A stretch of DNA of 32,000 nt, from contig NZ_LN831024.1 of the NCBI RefSeq assembly GCF_001457615.1, positions 2,340,001 to 2,372,000 on the forward strand, given 5' to 3'. The stretch is from Pseudomonas aeruginosa (lineage in GTDB: Bacteria; Pseudomonadota; Gammaproteobacteria; Pseudomonadales; Pseudomonadaceae). The first letter of the stretch is position 1. Each line of letters opens with the position of its first letter. This document shows positions 3,570 to 22,801 of the stretch, in pieces. The notes below the pieces were generated by a model, which made no database searches, was not told the origin of the DNA, and saw only the letters and a program-made list of their open reading frames with translations. The position numbers and the translations under genes are program-made.

Positions 3570-4784
3570 CTAGCGGGTGGAGTGCCCAAGGGCTCGCCAG
3601 TTGAATAGCGCCCCTGCCAGCATCAACAGGCTGGTTACCAGGAAAACGCTGCGCATCCCGAACTGGCCACCGACGAACCCTCCGATTACCGGCCCGATTA
3701 CCTGGCCGGCGAATTGCGCGGATAGCGACCAGCCCATTGCCGAGCCGACGAATCGCTCCGGGACGCTATGGCGGATTACAGCGGCCATGCACGGAAGCAG
3801 GCCGCCAAGCGCCATGCCCATCAGGAAGCGCAGGGCGATGAGTTGCCACCCCGCATATACGAAAGCCTGGGGAATCAGCAGGACGGCCGCGACGCTCAGC
3901 GCGGCTATCATGATGACGCCGTAGCCAATCCGGTCGGCCACCTTACCCAGATAGGTCGCGGAGATGATGCTTCCGAGCGCTGCCGCCGACATGGCCAGAC
4001 CCGCCACAGACGTCACCCGCCTCGAGTCCTCGAGCAGCGTTTCGATATAGACGGTGATAATCGGTTCGACCGACATGTTGGCAATCATCAGCAGCAGGCC
4101 TGTCGCCAGCATGGCGAGGATCACCGCCTTGTTGGGCATATTCGACCAACCGACCTTGGGAGGTTCTTCGACGGCGGGGACGGAGGGGCGTGCAGTCTCG
4201 CGCAACATGAAGGTCGTGAAGACAAACGCAATGAAGATCAATCCACTGGCGCCCCAGAATGTGGCTCGTATGCCGATCAGAGGAGGCAGGAAGCCGCCAA
4301 CCAGCGGCCCTAACAGATTGCCGGCCATCACGCCCGAGGAAAGAAGACCCAATGCCCATGCCGAACGGGATTTCGGAGCTTGCACCGCGACCAGGATCGT
4401 TGCCCCCGACGAGTACCCGCCGGCGATTCCCGCTAACAAGCGCAAGCCGATGAATTGCCAGATATCGGAGGCCAGCCCCATCAGCAACATGGTGATCGCC
4501 ATTCCCAGGCTAGCTCGGACCAGCATGGGCTTGCGACCGTAGCGGTCGCCAAGCATCCCCCAAAGCGGTGCTACCAACCCGGCGGTGACGAAAGTGGCGG
4601 CGTAGGCGATACCTGACCACTGCACGATTGCAGCGTGGCCCGATACCCCGAGTTGACCTATGTAGACCGGGAGGAACGGCAGGATAAGTGTCATGGCGAA
4701 GACGGTGGTGAAGGCTCCAAACAAGCACACGGCGAGGTTGCGTTGCCAGCAGTCGATAGCGGGTTCGTTCATGTTGCCTTGCAT
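3570..4784 (-). CDS. MFS transporter (12-TM type)
   Basis: Contains MFS motif A GMLGDRYGRKPML and multiple hydrophobic helices. I prefer the ATG at 4784 (GGAG 7 nt upstream), with 4772 as an alternative. The 4850 start in the ORF track would leave no promoter space. Confidence 0.9.
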   Translation of the reverse strand: MQGNMNEPAIDCWQRNLAVCLFGAFTTVFAMTLILPFLPVYIGQLGVSGHAAIVQWSGIAYAATFVTAGLVAPLWGMLGDRYGRKPMLVRASLGMAITMLLMGLASDIWQFIGLRLLAGIAGGYSSGATILVAVQAPKSRSAWALGLLSSGVMAGNLLGPLVGGFLPPLIGIRATFWGASGLIFIAFVFTTFMLRETARPSVPAVEEPPKVGWSNMPNKAVILAMLATGLLLMIANMSVEPIITVYIETLLEDSRRVTSVAGLAMSAAALGSIISATYLGKVADRIGYGVIMIAALSVAAVLLIPQAFVYAGWQLIALRFLMGMALGGLLPCMAAVIRHSVPERFVGSAMGWSLSAQFAGQVIGPVIGGFVGGQFGMRSVFLVTSLLMLAGALFNWRALGHSTR

Positions 4785-14703: not shown

Positions 14704-16503
14704 CTACTTCTGCAGCAACTGGACGTTGTCGATGAACATCGACTCCTGCTGGTTACCGCTGAGGATCATCAGTTCAGCACGCTTGATCGGCCCCTTCGGC
14801 AATTGCACCTGGCCGCGCAGGCTGGCCCAGCGGCCATTCTCGACCACCTTGTAGCCCAGGGGCAGGTATTCGCCGGGCCGACCCTGGCTTTCCAGGTAGA
14901 GGTAGGCATAGGTCATGGCCTGCGAGCCGCGACCGTCGCCGACCCGCACGTCCGCGCTGAACGCGTAGGTCCGGCCTGCTTCCAGGTTGCCCAGCAGGCT
15001 GGTGCTCGCGCCGGTGCCGGCGTAGCGCCGCTGGTAGGCTTCCAGGGCCAGCCGCCCGGCGCTGGCGACGCGCGTGGCGCGGGTGCTGGCATGCACACCG
15101 CTCCAGCCGCCGATGCCGCTCTCGAAGTCGTAGGCGATGCGTTTCGGCGCCGGCGGTACGCTCGGCGGCGCGGACTGGGCTTCCTGCAGGTTCATCTCGT
15201 CGACCAGCAGGCTGGCGCCGCTGTCGCTCCAGACCGCCACGTAGAGGTTGCGCTGGTCGGCGGCGGGACGGTAGTCGAAGGTCTTCTCCAGGCGACTGAA
15301 CTCGTTGCCGCTGACCGACAGTTCGACGCTCTGCGCCGGGTTGTAGGCCAGGGCGCCATCGGCGCGTTCGCTGAGCAGCGCCATGCGCACGGTTTCACGG
15401 GTATTGGCGGCCTTGAGCATGACCTTGCCGCTCAGCCGGTAGCCGCTGCCGGCGCGCAGGGGGGCAATGGGGCGGACCAGCAGATCGAAGCCACGCACGT
15501 CGACCAGCAAGGCATTGTCGCGGCAGCCCTTGGCGACGTTCACCAGGCTCAGCTGGGCGTTGCCGGACCATGCGCGCCAGCCTTCCATGCTGGCGAACTC
15601 GCCATCGCCGAGCAGGCCGCCGAGCTTGGCTTTCGTGCACCATGGCAGGTCCGGCGGGGTCGGCGTGTCGCCGCCGGAGCCCGGGTTGACCGTGCCGGGT
15701 ACCTTGGTCGGGCGAAAGTCGGCGATCTGCGTGGCCATGCTGTTCAGCGCGCGTACGGCGTCGGCGTGTTCTTCGCGACCGCAGGGCTGGTTGGCGCATT
15801 CGGCGTTGACCAGGCGCGGGTTGGCGAAGAACGGTGCCTGCTTGTTGGTGCCGAAGGCATGCGGGTAGGCCATCACGGTGGCGAAGCGCCCCTGCACGCC
15901 GTAGCCGCGGCTCCATTCGTAGGTGCCGCTGTGGGCGTAGCGCGGATCGTAGTAGCTGGACTCCAGGTCCTGCTCGTAGGAGTGGCGCAGGCCCATGTTG
16001 TGGCCGGCTTCATGGGCGAAGGTGTTGAGCCCGCAGTCGACCCCGGTGAGGTTGTAGGCAATGTCCTTGGCGTTGCCGTGGAAGCGCCCGCTGTTCTTAT
16101 CGCCCGAGCCCATGTAGCCGATGCCGCAGGTGATGTAGCCGTTGCCGCTGTTCTGCGAGCGGTTGACCAGGCTGACCAGGTCGGCGCCGTACTGCTCGCG
16201 CAGGCGCTGCACCTGCGGGTCGCGCATGAAGCGATCGAGGTTGGTGCCGGTCACCGTCGGGTAGTCGGCCCAGTCCAGGCGCTGCTTGTGCACCAGACGC
16301 AGGCGCAGGTTGACGCCGCTCTTCTCGTAGGCGGTGTTGGCGAACTCGATGTAGCTGGCGATCCGCGCATCGATGTCGCGGCCATTTGCGGTCTGGGTCG
16401 CCGCGGGGGTGTAGAGGACCATGATGTCGACGGTCTTCGGCGCGGCCTGGGCGGCAGAGGCTACCGCCAGGGCTAGGGTGGAGCAGAGCAGGGATTTCTT
16501 CAT
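14704..16503 (-). CDS. mep72: Secreted metzincin (M72-type) metalloprotease with C-terminal carbohydrate-binding-like modules (Mep72, from memory PA2783)
   Basis: Signal peptide MKKSLLCSTLALAVASAAQA|AP. Zinc motif HEAGHNMGLRH (HExxHxxGxxH). Long beta-rich C-terminal half. I prefer the start at the ATG at 16503 over the track start at 16551. Confidence 0.9.
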   Translation of the reverse strand: MKKSLLCSTLALAVASAAQAAPKTVDIMVLYTPAATQTANGRDIDARIASYIEFANTAYEKSGVNLRLRLVHKQRLDWADYPTVTGTNLDRFMRDPQVQRLREQYGADLVSLVNRSQNSGNGYITCGIGYMGSGDKNSGRFHGNAKDIAYNLTGVDCGLNTFAHEAGHNMGLRHSYEQDLESSYYDPRYAHSGTYEWSRGYGVQGRFATVMAYPHAFGTNKQAPFFANPRLVNAECANQPCGREEHADAVRALNSMATQIADFRPTKVPGTVNPGSGGDTPTPPDLPWCTKAKLGGLLGDGEFASMEGWRAWSGNAQLSLVNVAKGCRDNALLVDVRGFDLLVRPIAPLRAGSGYRLSGKVMLKAANTRETVRMALLSERADGALAYNPAQSVELSVSGNEFSRLEKTFDYRPAADQRNLYVAVWSDSGASLLVDEMNLQEAQSAPPSVPPAPKRIAYDFESGIGGWSGVHASTRATRVASAGRLALEAYQRRYAGTGASTSLLGNLEAGRTYAFSADVRVGDGRGSQAMTYAYLYLESQGRPGEYLPLGYKVVENGRWASLRGQVQLPKGPIKRAELMILSGNQQESMFIDNVQLLQK

Positions 16504-16580
16504 GGGTTGCCTGTGTTCGGACAATAGGAAGCCATGGCGCCCCGAGGGCACCGCTGGGGAAACATGCTGGGAAGGTGGGC

Positions 16581-17718: not shown

Positions 17719-18060
17719 TCAGCCTCGCGCCAGTTGCAGGAGACGGGCGCGCTCCTGCATCAGCGGCCGGCAACTGCGGATGCCTTCGACGATGCTGTAG
17801 AGGCTTTCGATCTGCTGCTGGCTGAGGCTGTTGTTCTGGGCCCAGCCGAGCAACTGCAGCCAGGTCCAGCGGGCGATGGTCTCGCTCTGCGTCTCGGCCT
17901 TCCTGCGGTCGTCCCCGTCGCTCTGTCCGACCAGGGTCTCCACCAGCCCCGAGGCGCACAACGGCAGCAGCTCCCGGTACTGCTCCGGGTGCGTGTCGCG
18001 TAGGCGACGCAGGGCCATTATGGCGGTGGTTATCGAGTCTGAATCCAAGCTTTTGTTCAC
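17719..18060 (-). CDS. Hypothetical 113-aa protein translationally coupled to bswR (from memory PA2781)
   Basis: The GTG start overlaps the bswR TGA (GTGA). AAGGAG lies 6 nt upstream, inside the bswR 3' end. Codon usage is coding-like. I recognise no motif. Confidence 0.75.
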   Translation of the reverse strand: MNKSLDSDSITTAIMALRRLRDTHPEQYRELLPLCASGLVETLVGQSDGDDRRKAETQSETIARWTWLQLLGWAQNNSLSQQQIESLYSIVEGIRSCRPLMQERARLLQLARG

Positions 18061-18401
18061 AGTTCACTCCTTGTGCGTACAGGCTGGCGGCTGGTTGATC
18101 CCTGGGCCGCGAGCAACTGTTCGATGAAACGCGTCAGCTCTTTCTTGAACTCGGGTGTCAGGCTGGACACCTTGAGGATGAGCTCGGCCAGCTCGTCCTC
18201 GGGGCAATAGAGGTAGGCCATGGGGACCTGGAGGACCATGGCCAGCTGTTCGGAAGTCCGCATGTTGGGGGAGTGCCGTTCGCGTTCGTATTGGTTCATC
18301 CGTGCGCTGGCGGAAAACTCGTCCATTCCCACCAGCATGCCCAACTGTTTCTGCGAGTATCCCGCTCTGATTCTTGCGGCTTTTAGCCGGGTACCTAGCA
18401 T
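18057..18401 (-). CDS. bswR: XRE-family HTH transcriptional regulator (BswR, from memory PA2780)
   Basis: MLGTRLKAARIRAGYSQKQLGMLVGMDEFSASARMNQYERERHSPN is an XRE/Cro-type HTH. The ATG at 18401 has gggag 8 nt upstream. The track TTG at 18437 is an alternative start. Confidence 0.85.
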   Translation of the reverse strand: MLGTRLKAARIRAGYSQKQLGMLVGMDEFSASARMNQYERERHSPNMRTSEQLAMVLQVPMAYLYCPEDELAELILKVSSLTPEFKKELTRFIEQLLAAQGSTSRQPVRTRSEL

Positions 18402-18808
18402 CCATACAACTCCCGTCCCGTTGGCCCGCTCGCTCAAGGTTGGGCAAATCTGGACAAGATGGAAGCTCAGGAATCCTTAGTTTTCGCCGTGCCGGAGGCT
18501 CTGTCGTCCGGGGCGGCGCGCGGTTTCGACGCCGTGTACGAGGCTGCGGCGGGGATATGCGTCGATGTCGCCGAGATCGCGCATGCTCCGGTTTTCTCGC
18601 GGCGAGCCGGAGTATATGCGAATTGCATAAAGGCGGACGCCGTTTCGTCGCCTGGGGGCGGCGGGTCGTCGTCTCGCCAGAGGGGCGGGCATCGGCGCCG
18701 AGGCGGCGGAAAACGGCGATCGGGACGATACTCAGGAAAGGTGGGCGTTGCGGAACCAAGCCTCGCCTTCCAGGACTAATAGCCGGGTTTCACGCAGAGG
18801 TCATTCCC

Positions 18809-19207
18809 ATGAGAACAACAACAAGCATCCGCCGTGTCGCTGCCGTCCTGGCAGCGCTGCACCTGCTCACCTTCGCCGAGGTTCCGCTCGCCCAGGCAGC
18901 GATGATCGGTACTGCGGAAGTCATGCAGCAACAACAGCACAACCTCGATCGCCAGCAACTGCTGAAGATGCTCGACGACCAGGGCGTCCAGAAGAAGCTG
19001 GAGGCCATGGGCGTGCCCCGCGACCAGGTGGCGAGTCGCATCAACAGCCTGACCAACGCCGAGCTGGCGCAGTTCAACCAGCAGCTGGACCAGGCGCCGG
19101 CGGGCGGCATCATCGGCATCATCGTGTTGTTCCTGGTGATCTTCATCATCACCGACATGCTTTGCGCCACGGATATCTTCAGCTTCATCAAATGCATCAA
19201 TCGGTGA
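18809..19207 (+). CDS. Exported 132-aa protein of the PA2779 type: signal peptide, Gln-rich helical region, double-glycine-like motif, C-terminal hydrophobic Cys-containing segment
   Basis: MRTTTSIRRVAAVLAALHLLTFAEVPLAQA|AM is a Sec signal. The sequence then reads ...SLTNAELAQFNQQLDQAPAGG|IIGIIVLFLVIFIITDMLCATDIFSFIKCINR. Confidence 0.8.
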   Translation: MRTTTSIRRVAAVLAALHLLTFAEVPLAQAAMIGTAEVMQQQQHNLDRQQLLKMLDDQGVQKKLEAMGVPRDQVASRINSLTNAELAQFNQQLDQAPAGGIIGIIVLFLVIFIITDMLCATDIFSFIKCINR

Positions 19208-20169
19208 GGCGGCTGGCAGGGGCACTGCTGGTCTCCGCAATGCTCGGCGGCTGCGCGCAGCCGCCGAGACTGCCGCCGGAAAGCGCGGCGCTGCCCGCAC
19301 GGGTGGAGCTGCGCGAAGTGCCGTTCTTCCCCCAGGAAGCCTACCAGTGCGGTCCCGCCGCGCTGGCCACGATGCTTGGCCAGCGCGGCCTGGCGTTGAC
19401 GCCGGGGCAATTGAAGGACGAGGTGTTCATTCCCGGTCGCGAGGGCAGCCTGCAATTGGAGATGGTCGCCGCGGTGCGCCGCCACGGCATGCTGGTCTAT
19501 CCGCTGCAAGGCGGACTGGAGAGCGTGCTCGAGGAGGTCGCGGCGGGCAACCCGGTGCTGGTGTTACAGAACCAGGCTTTCTCCTGGTGGCCGCGCTGGC
19601 ACTTCGCGGTGGTGGTCGGTTTCGATCGGGAGCGCCGCGAACTGGTGCTGCGCTCGGGCATCACCCGGCGCTGGGTTACCGACTTCACCAGCTTCGAGTC
19701 GACCTGGAAGCGTTCGGGGCGCTGGGCGGTGCTGACCCTGCCGGGTGACCGCCTGCCGGCCACGGCAGCGGCGGTCCCGTGGCTCAAGGCCGCCAGTGAC
19801 AGCGAGGAAACCGGCCACCCCAAGGTTGCCCGGCGTGCCTACGAAGAAGCCGTGCGACGCTGGCCTGAGGACGCCTTCGCCTGGTTTGCCCTAGGCAACA
19901 GTCGCTACGCCGCAGGCGATTCCGCCGCTGCCGAACAGGCCATGCTCACCAGCGTCGAGCGTCGCGTGGATTTCGCCGCGGGTTGGTTCAACCTGTCCCA
20001 GTTGCTGGCGGAACGCGGTTGCGCGGCGCCGGCGCGCCAGGCGCAGGCCTGCGCGCGGGCATTGCAGCCTGGGGATGCCCGCTTCGCTGCGGCCTTGCCG
20101 CAGGCCGTCGCACCCGCGGCTCGGTGCGCCGAGCTGCCGGCCTGTCCCGTTGGCGCACCGCCCCGCTGA
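19192..20169 (+). CDS. Lipoprotein C39-like (papain-fold) cysteine peptidase with C-terminal TPR repeats (PA2778 type)
   Basis: MHQSVRRLAGALLVSAMLGGC has a lipobox. QEAYQCGPAALATML is the catalytic Cys motif and PRWHFAVVVGFD the catalytic His motif. The TPR-like tail reads AYEEAVRRWPEDAFAWFALGNSRYAAGDSAAAEQAM. The ATG overlaps the upstream gene by 16 nt. The 473-aa track ORF is an off-frame extension. Confidence 0.85.
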   Translation: MHQSVRRLAGALLVSAMLGGCAQPPRLPPESAALPARVELREVPFFPQEAYQCGPAALATMLGQRGLALTPGQLKDEVFIPGREGSLQLEMVAAVRRHGMLVYPLQGGLESVLEEVAAGNPVLVLQNQAFSWWPRWHFAVVVGFDRERRELVLRSGITRRWVTDFTSFESTWKRSGRWAVLTLPGDRLPATAAAVPWLKAASDSEETGHPKVARRAYEEAVRRWPEDAFAWFALGNSRYAAGDSAAAEQAMLTSVERRVDFAAGWFNLSQLLAERGCAAPARQAQACARALQPGDARFAAALPQAVAPAARCAELPACPVGAPPR

Positions 20170-22724: not shown

Positions 22725-22801
22725 AGGCACGTAGCTCAGTTGGTTAGAGCACCACCTTGACATGGTGGGGGTCGTTGGTTCGAATCCAATCGTGCCTACC
22801 A
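22725..22801 (+). tRNA. tRNA-Val, anticodon GAC, with encoded CCA
   Basis: Cloverleaf read by hand: acceptor AGGCACG/CGTGCCT, D-arm GCTC-AGTTGGTTA-GAGC, anticodon stem CCACC/GGTGG with loop TTGACAT, T-arm GTTGG-TTCGAAT-CCAAT, discriminator A and CCA. Confidence 0.95.

Follow-up and report, generated by a model that had tools for sequence, protein, structure and literature searches.

The 32,000-nucleotide (nt) stretch of the Pseudomonas aeruginosa genome analysed here (contig NZ_LN831024.1, positions 2,340,001 to 2,372,000; hereafter the window) carries two overlapping genes, PA2779 and PA2778, whose products may form an enzyme-substrate pair of the cell envelope in which the PA2778 peptidase sheds the ectodomain of PA2779 at a Pro-Ala-Gly (PAG) loop. 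We favour this reading, which is drawn from the sequences, and hold it at about an even chance. The upstream gene (18809-19207 of the window; 132 amino acids, aa) encodes a member of the PA2779 family (NCBIfam PA2779_fam, Pfam DUF6627), scoring 140.4 bits against NF033919 (cut-off 40) and 123.6 bits against PF20332 (cut-off 27). The downstream gene (19192-20169; 325 aa) encodes a PA2778-family cysteine peptidase (NCBIfam C39_PA2778_fam), scoring 353.9 bits against the equivalog model NF033920 (cut-off 150) with profile positions 1-255 of 255 covered. Homologues 98-100% identical likewise place this DNA in P. aeruginosa. Both genes, and all their features described below, are on the + strand. 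A first-pass annotation of this DNA had described two open reading frames (ORFs) with a 16-nt overlap, a lipobox LGGC and the motifs YQCGPAAL and WHFAVVVG, all of which are present. It had given the products as family names only; the hidden Markov model names agree, and our literature search found no functional study of PA2779 or PA2778, only three incidental mentions.

In the proposed mechanism, PA2779 would be exported by Sec and its signal peptide removed after Ala30. As sequence and conservation suggest, a C-terminal helix would then hold the protein in the inner membrane, and its helical ectodomain of about 69 aa would face the periplasm. PA2778, made from the overlapping gene, would be lipidated at Cys21 so that its Cys53/His137 site and its tetratricopeptide repeat (TPR) domain face the periplasm; since both proteins have export signals, they are expected to share a compartment. 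The TPR part of PA2778 would then dock the helical ectodomain of PA2779, and the peptidase would cut after a small residue, as C39 enzymes do, within the Pro97-Ala98-Gly99-(Gly/Ser/Asp) loop close to the periplasmic surface of the membrane, giving a soluble fragment of ~7.7 kDa and a membrane remnant of ~3.7 kDa.

Co-inheritance of the small gene and the peptidase gene

A peptidase scan of one genome per species yielded 68 genomic loci, and in all 68 a DUF6627 ORF lies just upstream of the peptidase gene on the same strand. These loci span four bacterial classes (Gamma-, Beta- and Delta-proteobacteria and Nitrospirae), with sources that include Pseudomonas, Stutzerimonas, Methylophaga, Thioalkalivibrio, Saccharospirillum, Alcanivorax, Burkholderiales, Desulfobacterales and Nitrospirae. 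The search patterns included FFPQEAYQ and the sample is therefore biased towards peptidases that keep this motif; the invariance of His137 reported below is independent of that bias. Eighty metagenomic loci were found with a Pseudomonas-type alignment of the small protein and represent close relatives only (62-100% identical to PA2779); the peptidase is downstream in 76 of them, and the other four end at a contig edge. It is likewise downstream in seven of the eight Thermodesulfobacteriota DUF6627 proteins that were looked up. Conserved synteny, which had been put forward as a check of the first-pass proposal, is thus found in both the genomic and the metagenomic loci.

All-against-all clustering of the flanking ORFs from the 68 loci revealed no third conserved neighbour family, and in the same loci there is no conserved ATP-binding cassette (ABC) transporter, exporter, immunity or modification gene near the pair. 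The lack of an ABC exporter that had been remarked on for this locus thus holds across these loci, and no other gene is conserved beside the pair.

The strict adjacency of the small gene and the peptidase gene speaks for an enzyme and its substrate. It suits an obligate complex equally well, and the main rival reading, which we regard as rather unlikely, is that PA2779 stays uncleaved and serves as a membrane-anchored anchor, adaptor, activator or inhibitor, with PA2778 cutting other envelope proteins or peptides. PA2779 would then hold or regulate the lipoprotein, possibly bridging both membranes. This alternative is weakened by the finding that no other candidate substrate is conserved nearby.

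At two Ectothiorhodospiraceae-type loci a 155-aa putative lipoprotein is inserted between the small gene and the peptidase gene (L032:3473-3943 and L039:3443-3910), and at a third locus a 308-aa multi-pass membrane protein occupies this position (L029:2762-3688).

Architecture of the PA2779 family

An exhaustive search of representative sequences returned only small proteins, in about 1460 DUF6627 clusters at 50% identity, and the conservation percentages that follow are from an alignment of 219 members. PA2779 reads in order MRTTTSIRR-VAAVLAALHLLTFAEVPLAQA|AM..., a Gln-rich helical middle, ...SLTNAELAQFNQQLDQAPAGG, and then IIGIIVLFLVIFIITDMLCATDIFSFIKCINR. Its first 30 residues (18809-18898) are read as a Sec signal peptide, with a basic n-region, a hydrophobic core and an A-x-A site (...PLAQA|AM). 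Ala30 at the cleavage site is conserved in 93% of the family, and the mature N-terminus is also conserved, as A-(M/L/I)-(V/I)-(G/S)-T. The predicted periplasmic ectodomain (aa 31-96; 18899-19096) is assigned from conservation and from low-confidence helices in an AlphaFold2 (AF2) model; within it Gly68 and Arg77 are invariant, and Leu64, Val69 and Glu85 are nearly so.

The signature P97-A98-G99-G100 (19097-19108), the proposed cleavage site, follows directly and is placed by conservation and by the model in a loop where the membrane borders the periplasm. Pro97 is conserved in 89%, Ala98 in 92% and Gly99 in 96% of members, and position 100 is Gly in 49%, Ser in 20% and Asp in 17%. The conserved form of the 'GG' motif of the first-pass annotation is thus P-A-G followed by Gly, Ser or Asp. 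The C-terminal transmembrane (TM) helix and short tail (aa 101-132, ...ITDMLCATDIFSFIKCINR) extend with the stop codon over 19109-19207. The hydrophobic run is unbroken from 101 to 115 in PA2779, and the corresponding family columns are mostly 72-98% hydrophobic, with Gly at 103. The DUF6627 tail closes with Lys or Arg, usually as one basic residue, and there is a basic residue within the last 6 aa in 96 of the 118 PAG-bearing sequences. This arrangement should make PA2779 a type I membrane protein whose ectodomain faces the periplasm.

Two subfamilies depart from this pattern. One has a short tail in which PAGG is followed only by a plain hydrophobic run and Arg (for example GSVTLILLIIILIILLR and PAGGSVTLILLIIILIILLR), and the most distant one, from Thermodesulfobacteriota and Nitrospirae, reads ...L-K-V-[GA]-[GA]-D-D-G-L-G, a TM helix, and L-T-G-H-R-V-V-V-K. 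Signal peptide, ectodomain, small-residue loop, TM helix and basic end are present in all subfamilies and therefore constitute the common core. Such a layout is consistent with the suggestion, made on the first pass, that a soluble domain is released from its C-terminal anchor. The persistence of a small-residue pair, as [GA][GA], even in the most distant subfamily would favour cleavage at this position, and a PAG site placed after an amphipathic helix resembles the type of site that C39 enzymes recognise. The ectodomain core aside, PA2779 is best conserved in a loop of small residues of exactly the type cut by C39 enzymes, which likewise argues against an uncleaved partner, even though invariant Gly68 and Arg77, Glu85 and the conserved Asp116 and Thr121 point to a folded functional protein and not to a disposable pro-piece.

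The tail raises a further possibility, namely that it is the hydrophobic peptide at the C-terminus (residues ~101-132) that has the function, freed as a bacteriocin or pheromone core is freed from a long leader. C39 enzymes classically liberate the C-terminal part of their substrates, and the TM/tail motif of the main subfamily, T-D-x-x-G-x-T-D-x-F-P-F, is strongly conserved (Asp116 92%, Gly119 82%, with Cys here in Pseudomonas, Thr121 95%, Asp122, and Phe124 88%), and the Delta subfamily has a conserved tail of its own, ...L-T-G-H-R-V-V-V-K. We nonetheless consider such a peptide improbable: a whole subfamily has a plain tail of the kind already cited (GSVTLILLIIILIILLR), a Sec stop-transfer helix would remain in the inner membrane, no gene for export, immunity or modification is conserved nearby, and bacteriocins are not conserved in sequence across classes in this way. 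The more specific idea of the first-pass annotation, a hydrophobic Cys peptide, does not hold as a general feature, since 18% of aligned sequences have Cys at position 119 and 20% have it at position 129, and both residues are specific to Pseudomonas; we rejected a Cys-containing peptide as the conserved product.

Three minor features of the family may be recorded. Polar residues (Asp116, Thr121 and Asp122) are conserved inside the hydrophobic tail (window 19109-19195). The TM region of 12 of 54 DUF6627 members weakly matches Pfam MS_channel_TM1. In the ectodomain, the motif L-x-x-x-G-V-D-P-x-x-A-x-x-R-V-x-x-L-T-D-x-E-L (PA2779 residues ~59-91, window 18980-19080) is weakly similar to the CW_7 repeats by which the phage lysozyme Cpl-7 binds peptidoglycan (PDB 5I8L). 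The DUF6627 ectodomain profile matches 5I8L with an E-value of 5.6e-4 only when three repeats are summed, hhalign gives a probability of 30%, and Pfam CW_7 matches one of 54 members; this is too weak for homology to be claimed.

A lipid-anchored C39-like peptidase

The lipoprotein signal peptide of PA2778 ends in the lipobox L-G-G-C (Cys21; 19192-19254). Under a strict rule, 60 of 65 family peptidases have a lipobox Cys; among the five that do not pass it, four have lipobox-like motifs by eye, and the last (L004) lacks the Cys and has an apparently truncated ORF start. The lipoprotein signal is thus conserved family-wide. The catalytic domain (aa 36-190; 19297-19761) is assigned a C39-like papain fold from Foldseek and profile matches; PA2778 passes the Pfam threshold for PF13529 Peptidase_C39_2 (34.8 bits, cut-off 24) and falls narrowly below that for PF03412 Peptidase_C39 (21.6 bits, gathering threshold 22).

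A confident AF2 model of PA2778 built on 52 homologues has a predicted local distance difference test score (pLDDT) of 88.5 and a predicted template modelling score of 0.83, and consists of an N-terminal signal helix, an alpha/beta domain at ~36-190 and six TPR-type helices at 194-291, the latter superposing on TPR structures with root-mean-square deviations of 1.2-2.4 Å. A Foldseek search of the PDB with the model returned, for its peptidase domain, 3ERV (E 1.5e-5), the peptidase domain of ComA (3K8U) and LahT150 with its leader peptide (6MPZ), with TM-scores on target of 0.83 and 0.79 for the last two, and PCAT1; the remaining top matches are TPR proteins. A profile of 28 diverse PA2778-family members, which also underlies the statements on invariance below, recovered 3ERV (1e-8), 6MPZ (5e-6) and 3K8U (3e-5) from the PDB, so that the C39-like fold proposed for PA2778 agrees with its closest solved peptidase folds.

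At the positions of the oxyanion Gln, catalytic Cys and catalytic His of LahT150 and ComA, PA2778 has Gln48, Cys53 and His137, all three invariant in the family. The Cys53 codon (TGC, 19348-19350) lies in FFPQEAYQCGPAAL, within the YQCGPAAL motif, and the His137 codon (CAC, 19600-19602) lies in WHFAVVVG; the Cys motif is Q-C-G-P-A-A-L in PA2778 and D-C-G-P-A-V-L in ComA. With Cys and His intact and invariant, the site looks like that of an active enzyme. The Cys and His of the C39-type motifs reported on the first pass accordingly align with C39 catalytic residues; the position of the catalytic Asp, to which we return below, differs.

The lipoprotein signal also bears on a proposal from elsewhere. 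A transposon-directed insertion-site sequencing study (bioRxiv 10.1101/733030) lists PA2778 as a possible type VI secretion system (T6SS) toxin candidate, which would make the adjacent small gene its immunity gene: PA2778, a putative enzyme, lies beside a small coding sequence that had fewer transposon insertions when H1-T6SS was active. The idea was not followed up by its authors. A conserved lipoprotein signal implies that PA2778 leaves the cytoplasm by Sec, a route that a T6SS effector would not be expected to take; no T6SS gene (vgrG, hcp, PAAR) is conserved in the 68 loci or present among the annotated neighbours in the window, and a pair of such low divergence across classes is unlike polymorphic toxin-immunity pairs. 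We find this identity highly improbable and rejected it on the lipoprotein signal and the missing T6SS linkage.

Four Cys residues near the C-terminus of PA2778 (C277, C287, C312 and C318; window 20020-20145, residues 277-318) are invariant in the Pseudomonas group and absent from distant relatives, which suggests lineage-specific periplasmic disulfides.

Fused and separate forms of the TPR component

The TPR domain of PA2778 (aa ~194-299, six helices; 19771-20088), the proposed docking module, contains TPR_16 and TPR_14 repeats at or above the Pfam cut-off. In Thermodesulfobacteriota and Nitrospirae (L154, L157-L165, L061 and L064; for example L159:3001-4941) there are instead three genes, for DUF6627, a C39-like peptidase of ~185 aa and a TPR protein of 150-185 aa, in this order, as in all seven peptidase-linked Thermodesulfobacteriota look-ups. 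The short peptidase has a lipobox in L061-L064 and L159, as does the separate TPR protein in L061, L064 and L159. These separate genes identify the TPR tail of PA2778 as a third component of the module, one that is conserved and is either fused or split according to lineage; the repeats described on the first pass are present, but as a separable part of the system rather than a decoration of the peptidase.

A TPR module, fused or separate, is a protein-binding scaffold, and in this respect would be compatible with PA2779 as an uncleaved partner in the manner of NlpI, a TPR lipoprotein that presents the endopeptidase MepS to the protease Prc (PMC5686067, PMC11211486). Both systems pair a TPR lipoprotein with a periplasmic protease, the TPR part of the PA2778 module being fused in Pseudomonas and separate in Thermodesulfobacteriota. 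NlpI differs in serving the PDZ-protease Prc and peptidoglycan hydrolases, and its likeness to PA2778 is that of generic TPR repeats.

The number of small genes is also variable. At some loci they occur in tandem copies or on both sides of one peptidase gene, and three of the seven peptidase-linked Thermodesulfobacteriota look-ups have a tandem DUF6627 duplication, with copies ~70% identical. Duplication of the small gene beside a single peptidase is often seen with precursor genes, an analogy that would favour cleavage; tandem small genes beside one enzyme are more typical of substrates than of the anchors or regulators required if PA2779 is not cut.

Points that weigh against cleavage at the PAG loop

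Several observations weigh against shedding of the PA2779 ectodomain by PA2778. The first concerns the recognition site. With Gly99 as P1 (-1), hydrophobic residues fall at -4 and -7, which in itself speaks for cleavage, and with Gly99 as -2 they fall at -12 and -15, so that no single register in the PA2779 family fits all four positions of the -4/-7/-12/-15 rule of C39 leaders; nor do any of the curated double-glycine leader models of NCBIfam and Pfam match PA2779. When the isolated C-terminal half of PA2779 was searched, even at E <= 10, just PA2779_fam and DUF6627 matched. The analogy with an LSxxEL...GG leader drawn in the first-pass annotation is therefore a loose one, the register fitting in part and the leader models not at all. 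In the AF2 model of PA2779 a loop at residues 95-100 separates helix 84-94 from a terminal helix at 101-131, but the model is poor (pLDDT 53), and the PAG motif could be a mere helix-breaking hinge at the membrane surface. The TM helix and tail (Asp116, Thr121, Phe124) are moreover conserved as strongly as the PAG loop, which a simple anchor would not need and which speaks for an uncleaved partner.

The second concerns the enzyme. The position of the C39 catalytic Asp, ~16 residues after the His, is Ser155 in PA2778 and Ser in at least 90% of the family, and for this reason PA2778 is better called C39-like than a canonical C39 peptidase.

The third is one of location. The +2 residue after the lipobox Cys is A, S, T, V, L or Q in the PA2778 family and never Asp, which suggests that the peptidase is possibly in the outer membrane, away from the PAG loop, as would suit a PA2779 that is not cut. 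The linker from lipobox to catalytic domain is 19-34 aa long (median 26), and if PA2778 is in the outer membrane a site at the inner-membrane surface is not obviously in reach of it. Sorting of P. aeruginosa lipoproteins between inner and outer membranes is unreadable from sequence (PMC6469965), and neither PA2778 nor PA2779 was found in the supplements of that study.

Finally, orphan DUF6627 genes exist. In the lineage of P0465, a DUF6627 protein that occurs on many contigs (loci L149-L153, gene at 4001-4393), there is no C39-like peptidase within 4 kb, and the gene is followed by an unrelated 170-aa putative lipoprotein and then by a DUF3108 gene.

Relation to known processing and sorting systems

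The PA2779/PA2778 module resembles both a C39 peptidase with its dedicated precursor and a 'dedicated sortase' pair, and is a full member of neither. What is understood of C39 peptidases comes almost entirely from ABC exporters, in which they form a cytoplasmic domain that takes off double-glycine leaders. The C39 domains of ComA, LahT150 and PCAT1 have the same papain-type fold as PA2778 (TM-score on target 0.79-0.83), and those of ComA and LahT150 share with it the oxyanion Gln, the catalytic Cys in a Q-C-G-P-A-x-L motif and the catalytic His. They are cytoplasmic and ABC-fused, whereas PA2778 is expected to be periplasmic and lipid-anchored, with no ABC transporter fused or nearby, and canonical C39 enzymes have a catalytic Asp where PA2778 has Ser. 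The precursors differ as well, in that double-glycine precursors have an N-terminal leader and no Sec signal, whereas PA2779 has a Sec signal and carries its motif at residues 97-100 of 132. Among solved structures, 3ERV is the strongest match both by structure and by profile. This putative C39-like peptidase (Peptidase_C39_2) of Bacillus anthracis is a single-domain, non-transporter member from a Gram-positive source, with no TPR and no known function or partner.

The nearest studied parallel in kind, and a Pseudomonas precedent for the activity proposed here, is FapD, the Sec-exported periplasmic C39-like peptidase of the fap functional-amyloid operon. Amyloid secretion requires the catalytic Cys of FapD, for which no target is known (PMC5557850). 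FapD is, and PA2778 is predicted to be, a stand-alone, exported C39-type peptidase of the periplasm. FapD is encoded in a six-gene secretion operon that includes an outer-membrane pore, whereas PA2778 travels only with its small partner.

Criteria for dedicated one-to-one C-terminal sorting systems have been set out (bioRxiv 10.1101/2023.06.07.544157), and the PA2779/PA2778 layout appears to agree with most of them. A signature motif and a hydrophobic run are present, and enzyme and target genes are adjacent in the three samples described above (68/68, 76/80 and 7/8), with one orphan lineage. The targets of sortase (LPXTG), exosortase (PEP-CTERM), rhombosortase (GlyGly-CTERM) and myxosortase (MYXO-CTERM), like PA2779, have a signal peptide, a signature motif and a TM helix, most PA2779-family members also sharing a basic end, and in these systems too the enzyme and target genes lie side by side, one to one. 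It is conceivable that PA2778 is a papain-fold counterpart of a sortase, forming a thioester at Gly99/Gly100 of a 'PAG-CTERM' and transferring the 69-70-aa ectodomain to an amine acceptor and not to water. The acceptor could be peptidoglycan, perhaps recognised by the weakly CW_7-like ectodomain, or it could be the conserved N-terminus of PA2779 itself (A-M-I-G-T), which would give a circular protein. PA2778 differs from the sortase barrel and the polytopic intramembrane sorting enzymes in being a lipoprotein with a soluble papain/C39-fold domain, and whereas sorting signals end in a basic cluster, PA2779-family members often have a single Lys or Arg and a TM/tail that is itself conserved in sequence. 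We see only a slim chance that such ligation takes place; if it does, it would represent a new class of dedicated protein-sorting or ligation enzyme in the Gram-negative periplasm.

Under the reading that we favour, cleavage and release of the PA2779 ectodomain, the pair would be a minimal system for C39-like recognition in the periplasm, with one enzyme, one candidate substrate and one candidate docking domain that occurs in nature both fused and split. Confirmation of cleavage would add a new enzyme class to the dedicated C-terminal processing systems and assign a biology to two widespread proteins that now have family names only. Both families are already named in NCBIfam and Pfam, and the genes themselves are not new. 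What is added here is the strict pairing across classes and the existence of fused and split TPR forms, together with, as we read the alignments, a family-wide PAG-TM-basic architecture, a Ser-for-Asp active site and the testable model that results.

Gene starts and genomic surroundings

The 16-nt overlap with PA2779 follows from a PA2778 start at the ATG at 19192. An alternative start, the GTG at 19204, would give a 4-nt overlap (GTGA); the ATG is favoured because the N-terminus MH(K/Q)S... that it yields is conserved among Pseudomonas relatives. Some public records (P0123) give PA2778 as 292 aa, a shorter form without the lipoprotein signal, and PA2778 is listed with 292 codons in a report of a start-codon single-nucleotide polymorphism in clone CHA (PMC3697988). 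The longer form of 325 aa is supported by the lipobox, which is conserved throughout the family. Translation of PA2779 and PA2778 is probably coupled through the gene overlap.

Upstream of PA2779 and divergent from it is the gene for the XRE regulator BswR (PA2780; 18057-18437, - strand), a motility and biofilm regulator. The 371-nt intergenic region between the two (18438-18808) contains the published Mot3 transposon insertion, an insertion between PA2779 and PA2780 being described in PMC3985676. A simple scan of 18438-18808 gave no match to the sigma-70 consensus, and a promoter and terminator scan returned no promoter match and a single intragenic terminator-like site, at chance level. The 3' neighbour of PA2778 is PA2777, a gene of the formate/nitrite-transporter (FNT) family. 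A functional link of the pair to BswR or to the FNT transporter was considered and rejected, as neither neighbour is conserved outside P. aeruginosa.

Elsewhere in the window, 14704-16551 (- strand) encodes an exported 615-aa protein that combines a metallopeptidase domain of the M12B reprolysin-like type with two carbohydrate-binding domains (CBM_4_9), and a tRNA-Val(GAC) gene at 22725-22801 (+ strand) is the sole Rfam/ARAGORN match in the window.

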